A DNA stretch of 62,859 nucleotides from Cyanobacteria bacterium P01_A01_bin.123 (GTDB lineage: Bacteria; Cyanobacteriota; Cyanobacteriia; Phormidesmidales; Phormidesmidaceae). The notes beneath the pieces were generated by a model that searched no databases, was not told the DNA's origin, and saw only the letters and a list, made by a program, of their open reading frames with translations. The stretch lies in contig JBCBZT010000045.1 of the NCBI GenBank assembly GCA_039815185.1, positions 1 through 62,859 of the forward strand, read 5' to 3'. Of this stretch, positions 29,801 through 59,720 are shown one piece after another. The first letter of the stretch is position 1, and each line of letters starts with the position of its first letter. Made by a program: the position numbers and the translations under genes.

Positions 29801-31036
29801 CTAGTAATCCAAAGCAGCAGAAAGTCCGTCAATCAGCTGGTTAATCTCTGCTTCGATTGTGTAATGGAGGAATGACAATCGTAGAACACCAGGGTCAATG
29901 GGAATATTCATCCCCATTAACGGGCGAACACCGTAAAAACTTCCCTGCCCTACCATCAGTTTCTTTGCGGCCAGTACCTTGCAAACTTCATCAATTGATT
30001 TCTTTTTAGGTAAGACAGATACTGTTGGCGCTCGCAACTCTGGATCATCCGGTCCAACAATGTCAATATCGTCGCGCTGCCGCAGCCATTCCAGAAGCGG
30101 TTTCAGCAGGTTTTTCTCATGATCCTGGAACAGTTTTTTAAGACGTCTTCCTTTTTCTGCCGGGTCAACTGTTTCCGAAAAATGGTGTGCATAAACGGCA
30201 TCCAAATACTGGGCGACACCGGCAGTAGCTGCGATCTGGGCATGGTCTGGCCCTGCTGGCAGCATCTTTTTGCGGATACTGTGGGCATTAAAGAAGTGAC
30301 CTTGGTTAGGCAACGTATCCATAACCGCTTTTTTGATGGTCATGAGCCCAAGATGCGGTCCCCAGGTTTTGTAAAGGGAAAACAGGTAAATATCGACTCC
30401 CAACGCTTTAATGTCTGGCAGTCCATGGGGAGCATGGGCCACGCCATCAACCACGACGCAAACGTTGGCAGTCTTTGCCTTTGAGACGATTGCTGCCACT
30501 GGATTGGTATGGCCAATGACATTGGAACAATGGGGGAATGCCAGCAGTTTAGTTTTGTCGGACAGCAGGGCATCCAGATCATCTGGATTCAATATGCCTG
30601 TCTCAGGATCAACGCGCCATTCTTTGATCACGATGCCTGTTTTTTCAAGGCGTCTCCAAAATCCAGCATTGGCTTCATGGTCTTGGTTGGAGAGGATGAT
30701 TTCGTCTCCCTCGTCCCATATTTCTCGGAAGGCATGGGCTAGAACATAGAGGTTTTGAGTGGTTGATGGCCCGAAATGGACTTCATCTTCGCCGACATTG
30801 AGATATGCGGCCAGTCGGCGGTAGGACTCGTCCATTGCCGCACCGGCTTTTTGTGCGGCTGGGTAATTGTAATAGGGTTGAACTTTGGTTTGTGTGTAGT
30901 AGTCGTTTAGACGGGAAATGACCTGTTGGCAGGTATAGGAGCCGCCTGCATTTTCGAAAAAGCTCCATCCGTTGAGTGACGGTTCTGCAAAGGCAGGAAA
31001 CTGACTTCTGATAAATTTTGAATCCAACTGCGTCAA
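29801..31036 (-). CDS. Class V aminotransferase / cysteine desulfurase-like protein
   Basis: IRSQFPA, ENAGGS, DHEAN, DGVAHAPH and SLYKTWGPH (PLP lysine). Own start is TTG at 31036 with an AAGGAG RBS. Confidence 0.9.
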   Translation of the reverse strand: MTQLDSKFIRSQFPAFAEPSLNGWSFFENAGGSYTCQQVISRLNDYYTQTKVQPYYNYPAAQKAGAAMDESYRRLAAYLNVGEDEVHFGPSTTQNLYVLAHAFREIWDEGDEIILSNQDHEANAGFWRRLEKTGIVIKEWRVDPETGILNPDDLDALLSDKTKLLAFPHCSNVIGHTNPVAAIVSKAKTANVCVVVDGVAHAPHGLPDIKALGVDIYLFSLYKTWGPHLGLMTIKKAVMDTLPNQGHFFNAHSIRKKMLPAGPDHAQIAATAGVAQYLDAVYAHHFSETVDPAEKGRRLKKLFQDHEKNLLKPLLEWLRQRDDIDIVGPDDPELRAPTVSVLPKKKSIDEVCKVLAAKKLMVGQGSFYGVRPLMGMNIPIDPGVLRLSFLHYTIEAEINQLIDGLSAALDY

Positions 31037-31062
31037 AATTTTCTCCTTATTTTCATTAGGAT

Positions 31063-32070
31063 TTCTGCAGTGACTAAACCAGTTGAAGATATCCTTCAAT
31101 GCAATTTGTTCAGTCGCCTTTTCAAGACCAACCTGCAATTGCGCCAAAGTTTTAGCTCCCCAACTCCGCAAGGAATTTTTGAGTTTTGACCAGGCATTCT
31201 CAATGGGGGAAAACTCAGGAGAATAGGGTGGTAGAAACACCAGTGAAGCTTGAGCTCGGCTCAACATCGCCAAGAGTTCTCCCTGTCGGTGAATCCGGGC
31301 ATTATCCATCACCACACAATCACCGGGTTGTAATTGAGGAATCAGCCGTTGGCTGATGAATGCCTCAAAGGTTAAGGCATTGACGGCACCTCGAATGGGC
31401 GTCAGTGCCAGGAGTCGGTGCAAACTGAGTGCCCCAATTAAGTTCACATTTTCTCCCCGATTCAAAGGTCTCTCTCCATAGGCTCGGGTGCCCGCTAAGG
31501 AACGACCATACAACCGAGTCATGGCTAAATGTACCCCCGCCTCATCGATGAAGACTAGCTTCTCAGGGGCGTGAATCCTAACCCTTGGCCAGTAGTCGAG
31601 CCGCAGTAACCGAACGCGAGGGGTGTGCTTCTCGCTAGCCTCAAGTGTTTTTTTACGGGTTAATTTTAGTCGCAGGATGGTTCAGCTAACGGTGGCTGGA
31701 CTCACACTGAGCTGAGTGCGCTCTGCCAGAAGCTCAGCTAATTCAAGCAAGGTGGCATCATTTTTCGCTTCGACCAGCTCTGCTAAGATCAGCTCTTGAG
31801 CTCCGTTCAGTTTAGCCCGATGGCCTCCCCCATGGGGTTTTGGGGCGAGACTGCCCGTCTCTCGGTATTGCTTGAGGATCTTTTGGACGAAACTGGTCGC
31901 CACACAGAATCGTTGGGCGAGGGCGCGTTGAGAAATCGTTTCGCTTTCGTAGGTTTTGACAATTCGACTGCGGAGATCCGATGAGTATGCTTTCATTAGC
32001 TGAACAGGGTGGTGATAAGGGGGCTGAGGTTCTGACATACTTGTACCTCACTCAATCGAGTAACGCTATA
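31063..32070 (-). mobile_element. IS630-family element, decayed
   Basis: End TATAGCGTTACTCGATTGAGTGAGGTAC. OrfA has MKAYSSDLR and a premature TGA at 31682. A-run slippery site at about 31647-31654. DDE motifs FIDE, MDNARIH and LPPYSPEFSPIE. The second terminal repeat is missing. Confidence 0.9.
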
Positions 32071-36425: not shown

Positions 36426-37526
36426 TTACTTATTCTTACTCGGATTTTTGGCCTGTTCGAGGGCAATCTCTCGAATTGATTTCAGAGAGCTGAGGTTGGC
36501 AGCCCCGTCGATCGCTTTGACAGCTAGATCTTGAACTTGTTTCAAGGCTACATTTAACTGAGTCGAAAGATTTTCAATCCGATCGCCTTGGGTTTCAAGT
36601 TTGTCTTGCAGTGACTCAATCCGAAGTTCATAGGTGCGTTTTTGACCTTCAACCTCTTGGGCCACTAAATCAGCTTTAATTTTGGCTTGATGGTGAGCAA
36701 TTCCTCTACCTTCCTCTTTGGCTTTCTTGATGGCTTTGTCTAACTGCTCTGAAAAGCCTTCTACCTTAGTTTTGAGGTCTGTAAATGCTTGCTCTCGCTC
36801 AGCGATCGCCTGTTCACGCTCAGTCCACTGTTTCTCTTGGGCTGCTTGAAGATCTTCAATCTCCTGATAACGTTGCGTCTCAGTTTGATCATAGTCTTCA
36901 TCAGCAATCCGCCGTTGTAATGTCAAGCCATAGTTATATTCTTTCGCATCTCGCTGGCGTAGTTTTGCTTGCAGTTCATTCCGCGATTTAACCGTTCTAC
37001 CGTGGTCTTCTTGCTCTGCTACCCAAACCTTGCTGGCTTGACCCATTTCTAGTTCTAATTCTTCTTGACGCTGGCTAAATTCTTCACGAAATGCTTTATC
37101 GCTGGTTTCATATTCCTCAATTAGCGTTGTCAAGCTTTCATCAGCGAACTGCAAATCATGGAGGGTTTCTAGTTTCTGTGATTCTTCTGCAATAGAGTCT
37201 TGAATTTCTTGTAGTTTCAGCGCTTCGGAGGTCAGCTGTTCCGATAAAGCACTGGCAGCACCCCCAAAATTAAACTGGAGTCGGGTTAAATCCTCAATAA
37301 TTGATTCAACACCTTGCGGGTTGACAGTAGATGTCACCTCGGGCAGTATGGCTTCTTGAATGACTGTCACTTGAGACTTTCCGTTTTGATTAGGTGCAGG
37401 GTGAGATACTGTCTTTTGGGCGGTGACGAGTTGCATCTCTAACGATTTCTTTTCACTGATCAGATCGTTGTATGCTGTCAGAATCTCAGCTTTAGTGTTT
37501 TTGGTATTGAGCCTTTTAGTCGTCAT
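36426..37526 (-). CDS. Coiled-coil hypothetical protein (paralog 2)
   Basis: Entirely helical and E/K/Q-rich, with KNTKAEILTAY and C-terminal QVQDLAVKAI. ATG at 37526 has a GGAGG RBS. Confidence 0.85.
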   Translation of the reverse strand: MTTKRLNTKNTKAEILTAYNDLISEKKSLEMQLVTAQKTVSHPAPNQNGKSQVTVIQEAILPEVTSTVNPQGVESIIEDLTRLQFNFGGAASALSEQLTSEALKLQEIQDSIAEESQKLETLHDLQFADESLTTLIEEYETSDKAFREEFSQRQEELELEMGQASKVWVAEQEDHGRTVKSRNELQAKLRQRDAKEYNYGLTLQRRIADEDYDQTETQRYQEIEDLQAAQEKQWTEREQAIAEREQAFTDLKTKVEGFSEQLDKAIKKAKEEGRGIAHHQAKIKADLVAQEVEGQKRTYELRIESLQDKLETQGDRIENLSTQLNVALKQVQDLAVKAIDGAANLSSLKSIREIALEQAKNPSKNK

Positions 37527-37559
37527 GGATTCCTCCAAAGGATAAACAAAAAGATTAGA

Positions 37560-38570
37560 TTATGCAGCCGTTTCAGGTTGACCTGAGAGTTGATTTGATG
37601 AGCTAGAGAAAGCACGCATGGCTAGATCCTGAGCTTGCCCCATCGCCGTTCGGAGTTGGGTAGAAATGGAGGTAATCTCTTCAGCCTGGTTTTGAATTTT
37701 GGCTTCTAACGATTGAATTTTGAGTTCATAACCCTGCTGAGTCGCTTCCCACTCCTTCTCTAATAGATTGGCTCGAACCTTAGCGGCGTCGTGGGTTTCC
37801 TTAATGCTGGCCTCACGGGCTTGCTTAATCGCCTCTTCCAGGTCTTGCGGGAAAGCGTCAGCTTTTTGCTGATATTCCGCCAGCTTGGTTTGGTTAGCTG
37901 CCAGGACACTTTCGCGCTCGGCCCACTGTTTTTCTTTGGCTTGAGTTGTGTCTTGAATTTGCCGTTCAGCTTGTCGCCTAGTTTCTTCATAATCATCGTT
38001 TGAGATCGTGCGCGATCGCGCCGTTTCATACTGATAGTCTTCTTCTTGGCGCTGCCGCTCTTGCCCCAACAGGTCGTCTCGAATACTGGCACTTTGGTCA
38101 AATTCGGCTTGTTCGCGCTGCCAAACTTTTTGAGCTGCAGTCTTTTCTTTCTCCAGGGCTTCCTGCTCGTGGGTGATGCGGTCTTGCAACAGGCGCAGAT
38201 TTTCCTGATGGTCTTGGTTCAGGATGTAGAGCGCGTCAGCAACGACGCGAGCTTGTTGTAAGTCTTGTAAGCGTTGGGTTTCGACCGCGATCGCACGCTT
38301 TAAGTCATCAAGCTTGTCGGTTTCTATGGTGAGCTGGTCAGACAACTGACCAATGACGCTGCTAAACGAGAGTTGCAGATCCGCAAATCCTCGCACGATA
38401 CTGTCCGTGGTGTATTGGGCAACGGCTTCTAGGACTTGAAGATTCCGTTCCTTTTCAGCCTCTTCGGCTTTCGTCGCTACTCTTGACTGCATACTGCGCT
38501 GTGCTGCCAGTACTTGCTCAAAGGCGGTAAGCACTTTAGCCCTGTTATCTTGTCCAGCAATTTGGGTCAT
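37560..38570 (-). CDS. Coiled-coil hypothetical protein (paralog 1)
   Basis: Colinear similarity to the downstream gene (LQLSF/LQFNF, EEDYQY/KEYNY, QAQDLAMRAF/QVQDLAVKAI). Confidence 0.85.
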   Translation of the reverse strand: MTQIAGQDNRAKVLTAFEQVLAAQRSMQSRVATKAEEAEKERNLQVLEAVAQYTTDSIVRGFADLQLSFSSVIGQLSDQLTIETDKLDDLKRAIAVETQRLQDLQQARVVADALYILNQDHQENLRLLQDRITHEQEALEKEKTAAQKVWQREQAEFDQSASIRDDLLGQERQRQEEDYQYETARSRTISNDDYEETRRQAERQIQDTTQAKEKQWAERESVLAANQTKLAEYQQKADAFPQDLEEAIKQAREASIKETHDAAKVRANLLEKEWEATQQGYELKIQSLEAKIQNQAEEITSISTQLRTAMGQAQDLAMRAFSSSSNQLSGQPETAA

Positions 38571-38602
38571 GGGAAATCTCTGCTAACTTTGATAGGATCG
38601 AA

Positions 38603-38622
38603 TTGCAAACTGTAGTGTGCAA
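38603..38622. promoter_or_regulatory. Palindromic operator 1 (putative XRE site)
   Basis: TTGCAAACT-GT-AGTGTGCAA, 9-bp arms with one mismatch. Confidence 0.6.
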
Positions 38623-38629
38623 TTTGCAT

Positions 38630-38643
38630 AGAACATTTGTACT
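38630..38643 (-). promoter_or_regulatory. Cyanobacterial LexA (SOS) box
   Basis: Minus strand AGTAC-AAA-T-GTTC-T fits RGTACNNNDGTWCB exactly. Confidence 0.7.
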
Positions 38644-38680
38644 GTATTTGCGGATTGATGTAAACCCTAAATGACTCATT

Positions 38681-38700
38681 TTGCAAACTACAGTTGTCAG
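38681..38700. promoter_or_regulatory. Operator 2 (inverted copy of operator 1)
   Basis: TTGCAAACTACAGTTGTCAG versus the reverse complement of operator 1, TTGCACACTACAGTTTGCAA. Confidence 0.55.
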
Positions 38701-38771
38701 GTTGCAGTGCCGAGAGGTGCTGTGGGCACTCAACCCATCAGCGCTCTGCCTGTTTCGAGGAGCGATCGCCC

Positions 38772-39152
38772 ATGAGTGACTTTGGTGACAAAATTCGCAA
38801 ACGACGTAGTGAAGAAGGATTGAGCCAAGAAAAGCTAGCCCAAACCGTCGGCATTTCCCGCAACTATTTGTCTCAGATTGAACGGGGAGTGGCAACCAAC
38901 CTGTCTTGGCAGGTGATGAATCGGTTGACCGCTGCATTGGGTCTCAAAGCCGAGCAGGGCAGTGATTCAGAAGCCACGATAGCCGGGAGGATGGATTTGC
39001 CGTCTAGCCTGGTTGCCTTTGCTCAAAAGGCAGATTTGCCAACGGATGATGTGCTGATGTTGGCTCGCCTGAAGTACCGGGGACAACAGCCAACCACCTT
39101 AGAAAAGTGGGAACTCTTATACAACGTGATCAAGATGACCGTTGAATCGTGA
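38772..39152 (+). CDS. XRE-family HTH repressor (CapH/DdrO-like arrangement)
   Basis: FGDKIRKRR...LSQEKLA...SRNYLSQIERG. ATG at 38772 has a GAGGAG RBS. The stop overlaps the next start (GTGA). Confidence 0.9.
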   Translation: MSDFGDKIRKRRSEEGLSQEKLAQTVGISRNYLSQIERGVATNLSWQVMNRLTAALGLKAEQGSDSEATIAGRMDLPSSLVAFAQKADLPTDDVLMLARLKYRGQQPTTLEKWELLYNVIKMTVES

Positions 39153-40009
39153 GTCAATCCGAAAGAAGTCAACCCTACTGCCATCCTGGACAAGCCTTTC
39201 TCTCCCGTTGCGAATGGGCAGAGGCGGCTCAGATGGCGATGGCTTATGTGGCGTTTCTAAGGTCTGAGTCGGGCTTGACTGATCAACCCCCAATCGATCT
39301 AGCCGCCATCTACCGTCATTTTGGCATGCCAGAACCGTTACGGGCACCTCTGGTTGATCAACAGGGTATTTTGGTAGACAGTAATGCGGGATTAATTTTG
39401 ATCAAAGCAGATGATCCGGTCGTTCGTCAGCGCTTTACGGAAGGGCATGAGCTGATGGAATTGCTGTTCGACGCTTGGGAACAGACATTGGCTGGGCAAT
39501 CACCCGATTGGCAAGCGGAAGAAAAGGAGCGGTGGTGCGATCGCGGTGCGGCAGAGTTATTGATGCCCCAGTCATCTTTTGTGCCTCAATTACAAACACT
39601 TGGCATGTCGCTCCAAGCGGGTCAAACCTTAGCCAAGCTGTACACAACCTCTCTGATGGCAACTTTGCTGCACATGATTCAGCACACCGTCGGTTCCCAT
39701 GCGCTGGTGATGTGGCACCCCGCGCACAGTCGCCAAGAACTCACTCATTTTGAGGCGGCAAAGTCTCTGCCACCTAAGAAGTTGAGGGTTTGGTGGCGAT
39801 CATGTAGCCCCGGATGGACGGGTGGATTTATTCCCAAAAATAAGTCAATTGCCGACGATTCCCTGATTGCCAAGGCCTATACAACTAAACAGATCCATGC
39901 AGGCTCTGGCCAAATCAATCTGGGTTATCAAGCGGTTCACTGCGACATAGAAGCACTGCCAGTCCAGATGGGGGATAAGGGTTGTGTGGTGTGCTTATTG
40001 CATCACTAA
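39149..40009 (+). CDS. ImmA/IrrE (CapP-like) metallopeptidase with HTH and GAF-like C-terminus
   Basis: PPIDL, RQRFTEGHELME, ERWCDRGAAELLMP and a C-terminal FIPKNKSI...SLI segment. Confidence 0.88.
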   Translation: MSQSERSQPYCHPGQAFLSRCEWAEAAQMAMAYVAFLRSESGLTDQPPIDLAAIYRHFGMPEPLRAPLVDQQGILVDSNAGLILIKADDPVVRQRFTEGHELMELLFDAWEQTLAGQSPDWQAEEKERWCDRGAAELLMPQSSFVPQLQTLGMSLQAGQTLAKLYTTSLMATLLHMIQHTVGSHALVMWHPAHSRQELTHFEAAKSLPPKKLRVWWRSCSPGWTGGFIPKNKSIADDSLIAKAYTTKQIHAGSGQINLGYQAVHCDIEALPVQMGDKGCVVCLLHH

Positions 40010-48260: not shown

Positions 48261-49835
48261 ATGTTAACCCTTCAAGCAAACAGCCTTAATTGGGCTTTAG
48301 ATCATGCGTTGAAATATGGTGACACAGATGTATTTCCACTCGCGTTTGAGTACGAAGCAATACAACATGACTGGACGAATCTTCGTGCATGGCTAGAAGC
48401 GCAAAATATTCTTGAGTGGCAAGTTCGACCGCATCGAACTCTTCTCTCACCTAAAGCCAAGCATGGTTTTAGAGTGATCACACAGTTAGATCCGCTTGAT
48501 TTTCTTATTTTTGCAGCCACTGTCAAAGAAATCGCTGCTGACATTGAGGCCAGGCGTATTCCAGCTAATCAGAACATAGTTCATTCCTATCGATTTGTTG
48601 CAGGCATAGATGGTCAGCTTTTCGATCACAATATTGGTTATGCAGGTTTTCTTAGGCAAGCTAAAGTTTTATTAGATAATGATTCAATTCAGTTTGTTGC
48701 CACTACCGATATTGCCGATTTTTACTCGCGAATTTATCATCATCGCCTAGAAAATGCTTTACAAGCATCTACTAGTCGTCAATCGCATGTTAAGGCAATA
48801 ATGCGACTCTTAGCTGGCTGGAATGGGACAGAAACTTTTGGTATTCCAGTAGGTAATGCACCATCAAGACTACTTGCTGAAATGACTTTGTCAGATGTAG
48901 ACGAAGCTCTTCTTGCAAATAGGATTTGCTTTATTCGTTTTAATGATGATTATCGAATTTTCACGAATAATTATTCAGAGGCTTATCGGCATATTGCTTT
49001 TCTCGCTGATGTTTTATTTCGAAATCACGGTTTGACGCTCCAACCACAGAAAACAAATATTCTTGATAGGCATACATTTCTCAATCGCTTTCTATCAACG
49101 CCTGAAGATCGTGAATTCAATTCGCTAAGAGATAGTTTTGAACGTCTCATTGCAGAACTGGATCTTTCTGACGACTATGAATCTATCGACTACGATGATT
49201 TAAATGTAGACCAGAAAGAACTAGTTGATTCGTTGAATCTGGCCGAACTCTTTCAAAACGAAATTGAAGTTGACGGAGAACCAGATTTAGCACTTATTAG
49301 ATTTATTTTGCGCCGTATGGCGCAATTAGGAGATACTTCGATAGTGGATGATGTACTAGATAATTTAGATATACTACATCCTGCTTTTCCTGACATCATT
49401 AAGTATTTAAGCAAACTACCTAGTTTAACAACCGAAGAGCGTAGAGATATTGGTGCAGAGATCATTGATTTACTAAAAGATTCAATTATTAGCGAGCTTG
49501 ATTATCATAAAATGTGGGCTTTGGATCTCTTTGCCCATTCGACAGAATGGAATAACCACGATGAGTTTTTTGGGTTGCTTGTATCAGCAAGAGATATACT
49601 AAGCAAACGGCAACTTATTCTGGCAATGGGCAGATCATCACAACGTCATTGGTTCCAGTCGCAATGGCGAAACTTATTTGATGAGCCGCACTGGTCGCGT
49701 AGAGCTTTACTTGCAGCAGCTAGCTGTATGCCCACAGATGCACGAAAACATTGGTATCGATCTGTTGAGGCTAGGCTCGATCCTCTCGAGACAGCTGTAA
49801 TGAAGTGGGCAAGACAAAATCCGTTTGGTAATTGA
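48261..49835 (+). CDS. Reverse transcriptase, UG/Abi (DRT-like) type with alpha-helical C-terminal region, carried as an integron cassette
   Basis: PKAKHGFR...LDPLD, TDIADFYSRIYHH, GIPVGNAPSRLLAE, RFNDD and GLTLQPQKT. About 230-aa helical C-terminus. No intron RNA or maturase X/En domain nearby. Confidence 0.88.
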   Translation: MLTLQANSLNWALDHALKYGDTDVFPLAFEYEAIQHDWTNLRAWLEAQNILEWQVRPHRTLLSPKAKHGFRVITQLDPLDFLIFAATVKEIAADIEARRIPANQNIVHSYRFVAGIDGQLFDHNIGYAGFLRQAKVLLDNDSIQFVATTDIADFYSRIYHHRLENALQASTSRQSHVKAIMRLLAGWNGTETFGIPVGNAPSRLLAEMTLSDVDEALLANRICFIRFNDDYRIFTNNYSEAYRHIAFLADVLFRNHGLTLQPQKTNILDRHTFLNRFLSTPEDREFNSLRDSFERLIAELDLSDDYESIDYDDLNVDQKELVDSLNLAELFQNEIEVDGEPDLALIRFILRRMAQLGDTSIVDDVLDNLDILHPAFPDIIKYLSKLPSLTTEERRDIGAEIIDLLKDSIISELDYHKMWALDLFAHSTEWNNHDEFFGLLVSARDILSKRQLILAMGRSSQRHWFQSQWRNLFDEPHWSRRALLAAASCMPTDARKHWYRSVEARLDPLETAVMKWARQNPFGN

Positions 49836-50850: not shown

Positions 50851-51493
50851 TAGCGCCAAGCGCACCGTCAAAAACGGTCATATCCACACCGGTAAGCAGC
50901 ATTTCCTTAACCGAGGCTGCGCGTCGAAAATCCTACCGATAAACGCATTGACCAGGCGACTCGGGAACCCACTTTGCCTATAGAGCTGCATTACTACGAT
51001 AGTTAGGCAGCGATCGTAGATATGAGAGAAACCCACACAATTCTGAGCAGAAGTCAACACTGTTTTTATAGACTGTAGACCTCCACCCAAGGGTAGAAAT
51101 TTTTAATTTTGGAGAGACATTAAGTATTGCAAAACAACTTTATTTTTGGCACACAAAAGCACGTTTGATTGATTAGGCTTGCGGTATACAAACTCGTAAT
51201 GAGTATGATTTGATGCGAGTACTTGAGTTCCTGAATCTAATTAATGCTTGGTAAAACCCAGGATTTGCTAGGGCGACTCGAACAAGTTTAAGCTTGTGCG
51301 CCAACACCATGCGCAAGCGAGTGGCTAACGAGTCATCGTTTTAAGGTAACGGTTGTTTGACTATGGTGACCTAACTATTCCTTTAGAAGGTGTGAAGATA
51401 GGTCACTGTTTTTCTAAGACAGTTTCTCTACTCATCAATCTCGCAGTTAAGGGATGTCTAACTGATGTTGAATGCATGTAAGGATCTGGGCAA

Positions 51494-55921: not shown

Positions 55922-57484
55922 TTAAGCGAGTCCTGCTCGCGCAATTTCTAGCAAGATAAAACAGGCAAAAATGACACCGCCAACGCCACCGATCAAGAAG
56001 CCTGAGGTAAACAGACTCCAGTCTGTATAGGTGCTGATGTTGCCAGGGAGCTTGCCCCGAGGTTTGCTGCGACCTTGAAAGACAGCGCCACCATAGAGGA
56101 ACAAACAAACGCTCAAAATCACGACCAGCCCGGCGGCACTGCCAAATCCAGCAAGCAGCGCTTGATCGCTGTTGCGTAATGGCCCTAGCTTAAGAAATGG
56201 CCCGAGCAATAAGTATCCATGGGCCATGCCAATTTCTAATCCCCGCGTTAATGGGGAGAGTTTTGGGCGATAGATTGGCAAGTTCTTGATCCAAGTGAGG
56301 GCCAAAGGGCTGCCGCTAATAGGGGTGGCTAGGGTACCCAACTGGGGATCATTTTGGGGGGGCTGAATGATGCCCGAAAACAAAGGCTCACTATTGAACT
56401 GGGTGTCGCCATAAAAGGCTCCGGCATTGAACTTCATTTTGCTGAAGTTGTATCCCGCCGCGATCGCCCGCGATCGCAGACCATGCCAAAAATGACCCGC
56501 CAGCAGCAGACTGGCAAAGATCAGGTGGAACAACATTAACCAGGTGCGTGGGGTAATCACCCCATTAAACGTGGTCGTCCCCAGCGGGCCATAAAACACC
56601 TCGGGATAAACGGTGTCATTCACCCAAACGAAGTACGCGGCAAAGTAGCCCATGTAGGCCAGCGCGGCTTGACTATAGGCTAAATACGCCTCCCCGGACC
56701 ACACAAATAATCCCTCTGCCCAACGGGTTGGGACACTACGGATGTGCCAGATACCGCCCAATATCAAGATGCCCCCGATCCACAGGTGCCCGCCGACCAC
56801 ATCTTCCAAATTGTTCACGGCAGCCATGCCCTTAAGTGTCCAGCCCTCTGACGTGATACCCACCAAATAGCCAAAAATGGTTAACGGGTTAAAGGTGGGT
56901 TGACTCACCAGACGAACAGCCCCCACTGCCGGATCATAAAGGCCGCTGGCATAGGTGGCTTTGACCACCAGCAGTAGGGCCCCGACCCCGAGCAGCACTA
57001 AATGGGCACCCAAGATGGTCGTCATTTTGTCTTTGTCACGCCACTGATAGCCGAAGCCGTTTTCATCAAGCTTCTCTGGCCCCAAGACGGCGTGGTAAAC
57101 CCCACCGGCCCCCAAAATGGCTGAGCTCACTAAGTGGACGACCCCAATGACAAAGTAGGGATAGGTATCGACAATCGCGTTGTCAGGGCCAACCCCAATG
57201 CCTAAGGTTGCTAGATGGGGCAGCAAAATCAGCCCTTGTTCGAACATGGGCACACTGGGGTTATAGCGCGACAGCTCAAACAGCGTCATCGCCCCAGCCC
57301 ACAGCACAATCAGCCCAGCATGAGCCACATGGGCTCCCAACAATTTGCCAGAAAGATTGGCAAAGCGAAAGTTACCGGCCCACCAAGAGTAGGGATCAAG
57401 AGAGTCTGCAACATAGTTGGTCGAGGCAGCGGTATCGGTTGAAAAGCCTAGGGGTTTGAGGGGGTTGGGTTGGGTCACAGTCAT
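55922..57484 (-). CDS. isiA: IsiA/CP43-family chlorophyll-binding protein fused to a C-terminal PsaL-like domain
   Basis: WWAGNFRF...[18 protein letters not shown], then [24 protein letters not shown] and GPLRNS (PsaL). Confidence 0.92.
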
Positions 57485-58521
57485 GATGCACCTACCTGAC
57501 CACGGGTCGATTCAACAACACGGCCTTCGGCAAAGCTATAACCGGCTGCTCTGAGCGCGTGAAAGATGTGGCCCTGCAAGAAGAAGAACCCCAACCAAAA
57601 GTGAGCATTCGCCAGCCAGACCCGGGCGGTTAAGCTGCCGTCACTGCTGACAAACACGGGGAAACGGTCAAACACCAGCTTTAGGGTGGGGCCAAAAAAT
57701 TCCGTGGGAAATACCAAGGAATTGACTGAGACAAATAGGGTGGCGACAAATGCCATTAGACTCACAGCCCCAATGCTGTAGGACAGATAGGCTTCCCCTG
57801 ACCAAACAAACAAGTTTTGGGTCCAGGGCAACGGTTTTGTAGCGATATGCCAAAGGCCACCCAAAACGCAAATCACGCCAATCCAGATATGGCCCCCAAC
57901 CACATCTTCTAGGCTGTTGACCCCCGCTAACCAGAAGCGTCCTTCTGTGCCAAACAAGTAGCCAAAAATCGTGGCTGGATTCAGCGTTGGGTTAGTCACC
58001 ACCCGTACGTTTTGCACGATGGGGTCGTAGAGACCGCCGAAGGCGATCGCCTTTGCCACTAATAAAAAAGCACCGACCCCCAGCAACACGAGATGAATCC
58101 CCAAAATGGTGGTCATTTTATTGGTGTCATCCCAGCGGTACCCAAAGAACGAAAATTTGCCCTCTAGCTTAGCTGGGCCTTTGATCGCATGAAAAATGCC
58201 GCCCGCCCCCAAAAAGGCTGAACTGATCAGATGCAATACGCCAATCACAAAGTAGGGATAGGTATCTGTCACCTGCCCCCCTGCACCAACGCCTAACCCT
58301 AACCGGGCCAGGTTGGGCAAGACAATCAGCCCCTGCTCATACATTGGCAAGGTCGGATCAAACTGACCCACTTCAAACAAGGTAATCGCCCCGGCCCAAA
58401 GCACGATGAGCCCAGCATGGGCTACATGAGCCCCTAAAAGTTGTCCCGATAAATTAACGAGTCGAGCATTGCCTGCCCGCCAGGGAATCTGCGTGTTGAT
58501 ATTTTCTGTGGCAGCCGCCAT
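57481..58521 (-). CDS. isiA: IsiA/Pcb-family chlorophyll-binding protein
   Basis: [32 protein letters not shown] and [17 protein letters not shown]; lacks the CP43 luminal loop. Confidence 0.93.
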
Positions 58522-58574
58522 CGATGTCGTTCTCCTAAGTTAAGACTAAGCAAGTCAGCATGTAGGGTTGAGCC

Positions 58575-59720
58575 TTATGCAGATCTGGGCATAACCCCTG
58601 ATGCGAGTGGGGCAGTCCCATTCGCGATAAAGTCAAAAAAGGTGCCGTACTGGACACCGCGGGTGGCAGCACGGGCATGAAAGGCGTGCCACAAATGCCC
58701 AAGTAAGGCCAAAAAGCCTAATCCCGCATGAACACTCGCTAGCGCCGCTCGAATTGAGTCGGTCGCGCTGCCAACAGGCCCATAAAATACGCTGGGATAG
58801 ACAATTTCATTGGTAGAGACAAACACGGCGACGCTAAAGCCTGCGATCGCCAAAGCCCCCAAGCTATAAGACAAGTAAGCTTCCCCTGACCATAGCAGTC
58901 GTGCTTGAGCCCAAGCCATGGGTTTGGAAAAGATATGAAATACCCCTCCCCCAACACAAAGCAAACTCACCCAGATATGTCCACCTACAACATCTTCTAA
59001 GTTGTTGACACTAGCCATGCCGGTCAGTGTCCAACCCTCTGGCCCAAATCCCAACAAGTAGCCAAAAATTCGCACGGGGTTAATGTTGGGTTGCACCAAG
59101 CGCACCTGATCCACCAGCGGATCGTATAGCCCACCAAACCGAGTCGCCTTAAGCACCAGCAGTAAGGCTCCAACTCCCAACAGCAGCAAGTGAATACCCA
59201 GGATGGTGGTCATCTTGTCACGGTCTTGCCAGTTGTAGCCAAAGCCTTCCGGGTCGAGCCGTTCTGGCCCCAATACAGCATGGTAAATCCCACCAGCGGC
59301 CAAAACCGCCGAGCTGATCAGATGCACCATGCCGATGGCGTAGTAAGGATAAGTATCAACAATCTCTCCCCCTGCCCCCACCCCGATGCCCAGGGTTGCC
59401 AAATGGGGCAGCAAAATCAAACCTTGCTCGTGCATGGGCAAACTGGGATCAAATCGCGCCAGCTCAAATAGTGTCATCGCGCCAGCCCACAACACAATCA
59501 ATCCAGCGTGGGCAACATGGGCACCTAACAACCGTCCAGAGAGATCTTTGAATCGATTGTTGCCCGCTAATAGCGGTGCTCCGGTATCTTTGGTAACTCG
59601 ATAAGACCAACCCAGCGCTCGTAAAAGCGGTATCCAGAAAATGCCGTCCCCGCTTGTTTTCGATTCTACTGCTGCAACCGAGGCTCCACCTTCTCTATTG
59701 TCAGAGGATTGCATAGACAT
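58575..59720 (-). CDS. isiA: IsiA/Pcb-family chlorophyll-binding protein with N-terminal extension
   Basis: [24 protein letters not shown] and GHLWHA. Confidence 0.92.

Follow-up and report, generated by a model that had tools for sequence, protein, structure and literature searches.

Two lines of work describe the closest known relatives of the genes considered here. In Anabaena, the coiled-coil proteins ZicK and ZacK form an obligate 1:1 heteropolymer in vitro, in Anabaena itself and in E. coli, where co-expression of both yields elongated cells, and they contact MreB, SepJ, SepI and ParA; the zicK-zacK double mutant forms zigzag trichomes with nucleoid and shape defects, condensed DNA and DNA strings joining cells, and cannot grow in liquid, while single zicK or zacK mutants were not obtainable (bioRxiv 10.1101/553073). 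In Arthrospira, the arh genes are the top-ranked, sustained response to gamma rays, with arhD and arhE raised 15–23-fold, and neither nitrogen starvation nor light-dark shifts induce them; Limnospira (Arthrospira) PCC 8005 is without LexA, and the divergently encoded XRE protein ArhR has been proposed as the arh regulator (PMC4398503, PMC4550399, PMC8400943). We analysed a 62,859-nucleotide stretch of Cyanobacteria bacterium P01_A01_bin.123 (contig JBCBZT010000045.1; “the window” denotes this whole stretch, and coordinates are window positions), in which a pair of coiled-coil genes, here called zicK and zacK, lies divergent from genes for an XRE repressor and an IrrE-like protein.

We found this pair to be orthologous to ZicK/ZacK, its operators to be conserved, its regulators to resemble DdrO/IrrE, the metal motif of the IrrE-like protein to be altered, and the regulators to be exchanged across cyanobacteria. 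We consider it reasonably probable that the pair encodes a damage-switched filament under a DdrO/IrrE-like cassette. A broader proposal, which we advance tentatively and with some doubt, is that ZicK/ZacK is a cytoskeleton of filamentous cyanobacteria built upon DNA damage, a filament of two subunits produced when needed to hold cells and nucleoids through repair. It would be wired phylum-wide to whichever damage sensor is available, be it LexA, ArhR with an ImmA-type peptidase, or a DdrO/IrrE-like pair, and in the window’s lineage its release would fall to an IrrE whose His-Glu-Glu metal site has not been reported before. The components themselves were known already; what appears new is the wiring, the HExxE site and the equation of ZicK/ZacK with ArhD/ArhE.

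The two proteins are paralogous, as the initial annotation of this DNA had stated (31% identity, E 1e-50). Neither belongs to a family in Pfam, NCBIfam or PADLOC or matches a PDB sequence; Foldseek, a check proposed with that annotation, returned only long-helix matches, all non-significant, and an ESM Atlas search led to unnamed clusters. The AlphaFold model of the first gene product shows a single helix over residues 72–320 (~250 residues) and three short N-terminal helices. No hydrophobic segment is present in either protein (maximum Kyte-Doolittle 19-mer 0.95 and 0.58), nor any transmembrane or catalytic feature, so that family scans, model and hydropathy agree with the original remark that the pair has no catalytic motif.

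The zacK product is 49% identical over 366 aa, its full length, to Cylindrospermum WP_015208944, and the zicK product is 50–59% identical to the first genes of Nostoc and Crinalium pairs. In the supplement of the Springstein survey (PMC7002697), WP_015208944 and PCC 7120 WP_010998638 (four coiled coils) both fall in family 3747; the gene adjoining WP_015208944 belongs to family 3891, which includes PCC 7120 WP_010998637 (five coiled coils) and Arthrospira PCC 8005 WP_008056749. Coiled-coil counts of five for ZicK and four for ZacK are also those of the Anabaena report (bioRxiv 10.1101/553073). At Nostocales-type loci the divergent neighbour of the pair is a PhoB-like gene that follows phoU and its own kinase gene, the same layout as phoU-sphS-sphR (all4501–all4503) followed by alr4504/5 in PCC 7120. 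Because shared families with consecutive accessions, coiled-coil counts of five and four, and sphR synteny all tie to alr4504/5, the window pair appears orthologous to Anabaena ZicK/ZacK (Alr4504/Alr4505); the link is an indirect one with three supports.

The N-terminal halves of ARTHROv5_10470 (arhD) and ARTHROv5_10471 (arhE) are printed in the PMC8400943 supplement; compared by eye, they share conserved motifs such as YTVDSLVKGLADLQL with the window pair, and the N-terminus of the zacK product agrees with the printed ArhE translation. Since the families and the printed motifs agree, ZicK/ZacK and ArhD/ArhE are, on sequence grounds, one family and the same gene pair. The module had been put forward as undescribed; the pair instead matches the characterised genes ZicK/ZacK and ArhD/ArhE, a finding the initial annotation itself had named as speaking against its proposal. 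No publication joining ZicK/ZacK to arh, LexA or IrrE was found in the literature within reach, subscription journals and bioRxiv supplements lying outside it, and the terms LexA and DNA damage are absent from the accessible text of the ZicK/ZacK paper (bioRxiv 10.1101/553073).

Two separate literatures are thereby joined: the top radiation-induced Spirulina genes arhD/E correspond to the filament-forming ZicK/ZacK of Anabaena, so that the arh genes gain a molecular activity and ZicK/ZacK gain a trigger. The supposed cell-shape scaffold is suggested to be a damage-response structure too, and a damage trigger would help to explain why unstressed cells showed no native filaments. Two properties suggested at the outset are accordingly likely for the window pair, with orthologs that polymerise 1:1 (bioRxiv 10.1101/553073) and are strongly gamma-ray induced (PMC4398503, PMC4550399, PMC8400943): that it forms a heteropolymer and that it is DNA-damage-inducible. 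The genetic tractability of Anabaena allows the ideas on arh activity, ZicK/ZacK trigger and the arhX inducer (below) to be tested together.

The window locus shares with PCC 7120 an orthologous paralog pair, its gene order and sizes, ~50% identity to Nostocales-type copies, and soluble products free of transmembrane segments. It differs in that the Anabaena pair, described as a trichome-shape scaffold (bioRxiv 10.1101/553073), adjoins sphR, whereas the window pair adjoins an XRE/IrrE cassette; Nostocales-type promoters have a LexA box instead of the cassette. With the arh operon of PCC 8005 (arhX-arhR / arhA-E) it shares the ArhD/ArhE pair and a divergent XRE gene followed by an M78 gene (arhX, HEIGH), but the radiation-induced arhABC are absent from the window, the window XRE is DdrO-like with another C-terminal domain, its operator is TGCAAACT-N2-AGTTTGCA rather than the TTGA-N8-TCAA of ArhR, its partner has full length, a GAF-like domain and HELxE, and its host has LexA. 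arhX (ARTHROv5_10465) carries ESTIAHEIGHW and is annotated as unknown (PMC8400943 supplement); as an HExxH M78 peptidase, it is a candidate inducer in a cyanobacterium without LexA.

Regulators and promoter of the pair

The XRE protein carries HTH_3/HTH_31 domains and aligns over residues 6–121, C-terminal domain included, to a Deinococcus XRE (6JQ1, the best PDB hit) and to DdrO (6RNX/6RMQ). IrrE cuts DdrO at L106-R107, in the EL-RG loop; the window XRE has KY-RG at this position, and the residues Y102-R103-G104 aligned to the cleavage site are invariant in 13 of 13 homologs. The partner protein is a Peptidase_M78 member (model pLDDT 88.8) with a three-domain peptidase-HTH-GAF fold, for which Foldseek placed IrrE/PprI best (E 1e-11) and CapP next (E 2e-6). 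R93, the equivalent of the PprI residue Arg85 that binds single-stranded DNA (ssDNA), is invariant. The motif HELME replaces HExxH, and RFTEGHELxELL occurs in 120/120 of the homologs listed (280 found; 48–99% identity); among these, invariance extends to the catalytic Glu, first His and third ligand Glu, and to an extra Glu two residues ahead of the first His. The retention of HELxE in all listed homologs argues that the site is under selection, though it is not HExxH. The invariant site marks a novel metal geometry in IrrE-family peptidases or, alternatively, a form of the switch that does not cleave. The label “IrrE-type peptidase” therefore stands as to fold and family, while its peptidase activity is put in question by HELME.

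Control of the CapH/CapP type had also been suggested. The layout supports this in part: in CBASS loci, CapH/CapP likewise form a divergent repressor-peptidase cassette whose promoter region is shared with the target (bioRxiv 2022.04.27.489752), and PADLOC matches the window genes to capH (E 2e-10) and capP (E 1.5e-17), with a CapP match in Foldseek. These matches are weaker than those to DdrO/IrrE, however, the similarity to CapH is confined to the HTH domain, and the operon targeted in the window is neither a known immune system nor one linked to an island. Judged from sequence and model, the regulators are closer to DdrO/IrrE, the radiation switch of Deinococcus, which gives the best sequence and fold matches for both, with the DdrO C-terminal dimer domain and cleavage loop in common. 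Differences from Deinococcus are that the window regulators are adjacent, coupled genes with one local promoter and no regulon found, and that the partner has HExxE rather than the HExxH of IrrE. The window operator is also unlike the Deinococcus RDRM motif.

All 11 loci with this cassette contain two 18-bp palindromes, TGCAAACT-N2-AGTTTGCA, 76–79 bp apart and flanking a sigma-70-like promoter in the spacer alignment, where relatives have TTGACA/TTGCAT and TATAAC/TAGAGT at the promoter positions; in a consensus promoter scan, the zicK-zacK spacer promoter was not reported. Among other promoters (n = 162), single weak operator matches occurred in four and an operator pair in one (L063, a cut contig). 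The proposal that the coiled-coil pair is the regulated output of the divergent cassette is supported. The proximal operator is the best site in the genome, and the predicted zicK start site lies just upstream of it. Operator binding by the repressor is very probable overall: the XRE likely binds the proximal operator and likely also the distal one, where binding would be autoregulatory as well. A genome-wide search for an XRE regulon found none, and only the two spacer operators stand out. Five other genome sites match the operator at 2 mismatches; C113:7179 falls within an ORF.

The general LexA pattern is weak evidence within the window (2 found vs 0.5 expected; 13/100 shuffles reach 2), whereas the strict form AGTAC-N4-GTWCT has 7 sites in the 8.09-Mb genome, 5 of them intergenic and the window box included. 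In the host, lexA is present and recA occurs twice, both copies with a box at 1 mismatch. The recA genes lie on contigs C35 and C39 of this genome (G000), whose contamination is estimated at 6%, and one recA may be foreign. Under a looser, after-the-fact definition, LexA-like sites occur in 4/11 cassette loci (0.5 expected), and variant boxes lie one helical turn away in L067, L094, L188 and L191. A working LexA box at this locus is slightly favoured. Dual control including LexA is likely in this strain and would not be a fixed trait of the cassette; the earlier idea that two damage sensors gate the pair thus holds as plausible here and does not appear to describe a conserved feature of the cassette.

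Distribution of the pair and its regulators

In a phylum-wide sample of 401 cyanobacterial genomes, 80 had zicK matches, almost all of them belonging to an adjacent pair; the present genome has one pair, and matches occur in only 2/24 same-family relatives searched. An early view that regulators are confined to one clade of 11 loci was overturned by neighbour clustering, which revealed a second XRE and M78 cassette: 51 further loci carry this unrelated cassette, composed of an ArhR-type XRE and a short HEIGH peptidase with TTGA-N8-TCAA operators, with arhABC between or not.

Of the 79 sampled genomes with matches, 77 were sorted by regulator class, the remaining two, with weak matches, being left out. 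The ArhR and HExxH-peptidase cassette was present in 31 (in one, the peptidase lies outside the analysed stretch), a LexA box without a regulator in 23, ArhR alone in 8 and ArhR-type operators alone in 3; 3 had arh genes without a visible cassette, 1 had the DdrO/IrrE-like cassette, and in 8 nothing was found. In 66/77 genomes the pair is thus preceded by an XRE cassette, by the operators of one or by a LexA box; shuffles predict 3.2 LexA-like matches across all 77. At the level of promoters (after removal of identical promoters, truncated arh loci, 12 loci from outside cyanobacteria, one locus with a frameshift and those with <900 bp upstream), LexA boxes at ≤1 mismatch were found in 37/58 without an XRE (2.2 expected), 3/48 with the ArhR cassette (1.95 expected) and 0/8 with ArhR alone. 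Across cyanobacteria, one and the same pair is placed under damage-type controls that replace one another.

A close homolog of the IrrE-like partner occurs in 4/401 genomes, 2/4 of them without an adjacent pair; one of these two keeps both operators, facing a gap at the former place of the pair. At L191:7020–8500 (G266), the DdrO/IrrE-like cassette, both operators, the promoter and the LexA-like site are intact, while zicK/zacK are gone and were not found genome-wide.

Beyond cyanobacteria, Myxococcota are among the groups with the pair, and bins assigned to Aerophobetes, Altarchaeum and Clostridia have single-gene forms. The single-gene homologs (L045, L048–L051; ~340 aa), some of them beside AbiEi/AbiEii, are possibly an unduplicated, homopolymeric form. 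In seven loci of the window’s clade (L060, L061, L062, L063, L094, L187 and L188), zacK is closely followed on the same strand by a KTSC-domain gene, which may be a third member of the operon and is absent from the window. ArhA, ArhB and ArhC homologs (L085:2178–2948, L089:2196–2678, L107:3453–3908 and ~50 similar loci) belong to no Pfam family, and in L154:4554–6374 and L156:440–2230 what is by eye a group II intron reverse transcriptase ORF lies inside arhB, parting the pair from its regulators. Seven loci (L109, L117, L126, L131, L133, L153 and L166) have two or three TTGA-N8-TCAA operators upstream of zicK without an adjacent regulator, suggesting that ArhR acts from elsewhere in the genome.

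Proposed mechanism and alternatives

In the mechanism we propose, the DdrO-like repressor on its two operators would keep the ZicK/ZacK pair off, and DNA damage would let the IrrE-like partner inactivate this repressor, switching the pair on; in this strain, LexA release probably adds to the switching-on. ZicK and ZacK would then co-assemble into a filament likely steadying cell and chromosomes during repair. The steps differ in strength: damage induction at this locus is quite likely, cleavage at Y102-R103 by the HExxE site is just on the probable side, and for a protective role of the filament we see the chances as even.

Several observations weigh against this reading. In the closest relatives of the window locus, L059 and L189 (ZicK 81–83% identical), the LexA box is degenerate, with only the −10 half kept; a box at ≤1 mismatch occurs in only 2/11 cassette loci (0.45 expected), and the published LexA prediction for PCC 7120 omits alr4504 (PMC3091678 supplement). 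The regulator classes follow the clades of the ZicK tree and the counted genomes are kin, implying few regulator switches rather than dozens of independent trials. Neither XRE nor IrrE was detected beside 21 non-cyanobacterial loci (12 narrow-pattern loci, and 9 stretches from one phylum sample). A native filament was not seen in wild-type Anabaena cells, and the double mutant is sick in the absence of damage (bioRxiv 10.1101/553073); BMAA raises Alr4505 20-fold and Alr4504 4.35-fold, and both are listed as NtcA-regulated (PMC8147232). The sick mutant, BMAA induction and NtcA listing together indicate that the pair also functions in unstressed cells. The second zinc-binding His, finally, is Glu in 120/120 of the partner homologs listed.

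This last substitution affects H86, a zinc ligand in IrrE, and together with the added invariant Glu before the first His it raises an alternative in which the HExxE protein would act without cleavage, as a sensor or antirepressor binding and sequestering the XRE (or would be kept inactive), LexA giving part of the damage signal here. Consistent with this, LexA-like sites under the looser definition occur in 4/11 loci of this cassette and at background level, 3/47 (2.8 expected), with the intact HExxH cassette; a Mycobacterium transcription regulator (6CZ6 family), presumably the non-proteolytic PrpR, is likewise among the matches to the partner fold. Glu can, however, bind Mn or Zn, PprI works with Mn, and the catalytic Glu, first His and third ligand Glu are invariant; a dead enzyme would, moreover, not obviously need the invariant DdrO-type cleavage loop of the XRE. 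We regard a non-cleaving partner as possible and rather unlikely. Less likely again is that the pair is mainly a constitutive cell-shape scaffold, raised by general oxidative, metal or protein stress and not specifically by DNA damage. The zigzag trichomes and failed liquid growth of the undamaged double mutant and the BMAA response would fit such a role, IrrE is also stimulated by released zinc, and gamma rays bring oxidative stress besides breaks; yet three unrelated damage-sensing repressor systems, RecA/LexA among them, converge on the pair, its absence from 22/24 same-family relatives is odd for a core shape element, and the arh genes respond to neither nitrogen starvation nor light-dark shifts.

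The initial annotation had considered a membrane-remodelling or abortive-infection effector, and an anti-phage role under a CapH/CapP-type switch would draw on the divergent repressor-peptidase layout typical of those loci (bioRxiv 2022.04.27.489752), the PADLOC capH and capP matches, a patchy distribution with one copy on a 1.2-Mb plasmid, and the unobtainable single deletions in Anabaena, a toxin-antitoxin-like trait. The pair itself matches no PADLOC model, however, has no transmembrane or catalytic feature, and was found neither in 50,697 phage records nor in a scan of viral contigs. The proposed check for defence-island enrichment gave scattered PADLOC matches for 7/99 neighbouring ORFs (23 loci), with no recurring system, a count given without a background set; the window neighbours are metabolic genes, GC content of the module is in line with that of the flanks, and synteny beside sphR is stable in Nostocales-type loci. 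Membrane remodelling was dropped since family, PDB, Foldseek and ESM Atlas searches gave no PspA/ESCRT-III, SPFH or vault likeness. With no defence-island, phage or membrane signal, such an effector is improbable, and the damage-switched filament remains the reading we prefer.

Locus anatomy and neighbouring features

All four ORFs were located where originally placed, the pair divergent from overlapping XRE and M78 genes (Table 1). The spacer between zicK and the XRE gene, given earlier as about 200 bp, measures 201 bp and contains the LexA box, an exact pattern match, and the two palindromes. The zicK-zacK gap is 33 bp and contains GGAGG, and the XRE stop and M78 start overlap by GTGA. That the pair is cotranscribed was not borne out, no joint transcript having been found for the Anabaena orthologs (bioRxiv 10.1101/553073).

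Table 1 Features of the zicK-zacK locus (window positions).
Feature	Position	Strand	Basis
zacK / arhE ortholog, second gene, coiled-coil, 366 aa from ATG	36426..37526	-	ORF, homology
zicK / arhD ortholog, first gene, coiled-coil, 336 aa	37560..38570	-	ORF, homology, all-helical model
Proximal palindromic operator, 1 mismatch to TGCAAACT-N2-AGTTTGCA	38604..38621		Kept in 11/11 cassette loci
LexA box AGTACAAATGTTCT, overlapping the predicted -10	38630..38643		Exact pattern match
Predicted sigma-70 promoter of zicK-zacK: TTTACA, 17 bp, TACAAA	38636..38664	-	Aligned spacers
Distal palindromic operator, 2 mismatches, between -35 element and XRE gene	38682..38699		Kept in 11/11 cassette loci
DdrO-like XRE repressor, 126 aa	38772..39152	+	HTH_3/HTH_31, PDB match
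IrrE/PprI-like three-domain protein, 286 aa, HELME at 39446-39460	39149..40009	+	Peptidase_M78, Foldseek

Elsewhere in the window, the second LexA-pattern match (AGTACTTGAGTTCC; 51218–51231, + strand) is followed ~260 bp downstream by a redoxin gene (51494) and then by a catalase-peroxidase-like gene (52030). At 29801–32038 (− strand) there is a split transposase, with its HTH half at 31682–32038; the ORF at 29801–31522 has a DDE_3 domain in frame with a class-V aminotransferase (cysteine desulfurase-like), probably reflecting an insertion directly ahead of the aminotransferase gene. A reverse-transcriptase ORF (RVT_1, 524 aa) occupies 48261–49835 (+ strand) in a region of low GC (0.40), and at 55922–59720 (− strand) three CP43/IsiA-like antenna genes stand in tandem, the last fused to a PsaL domain.

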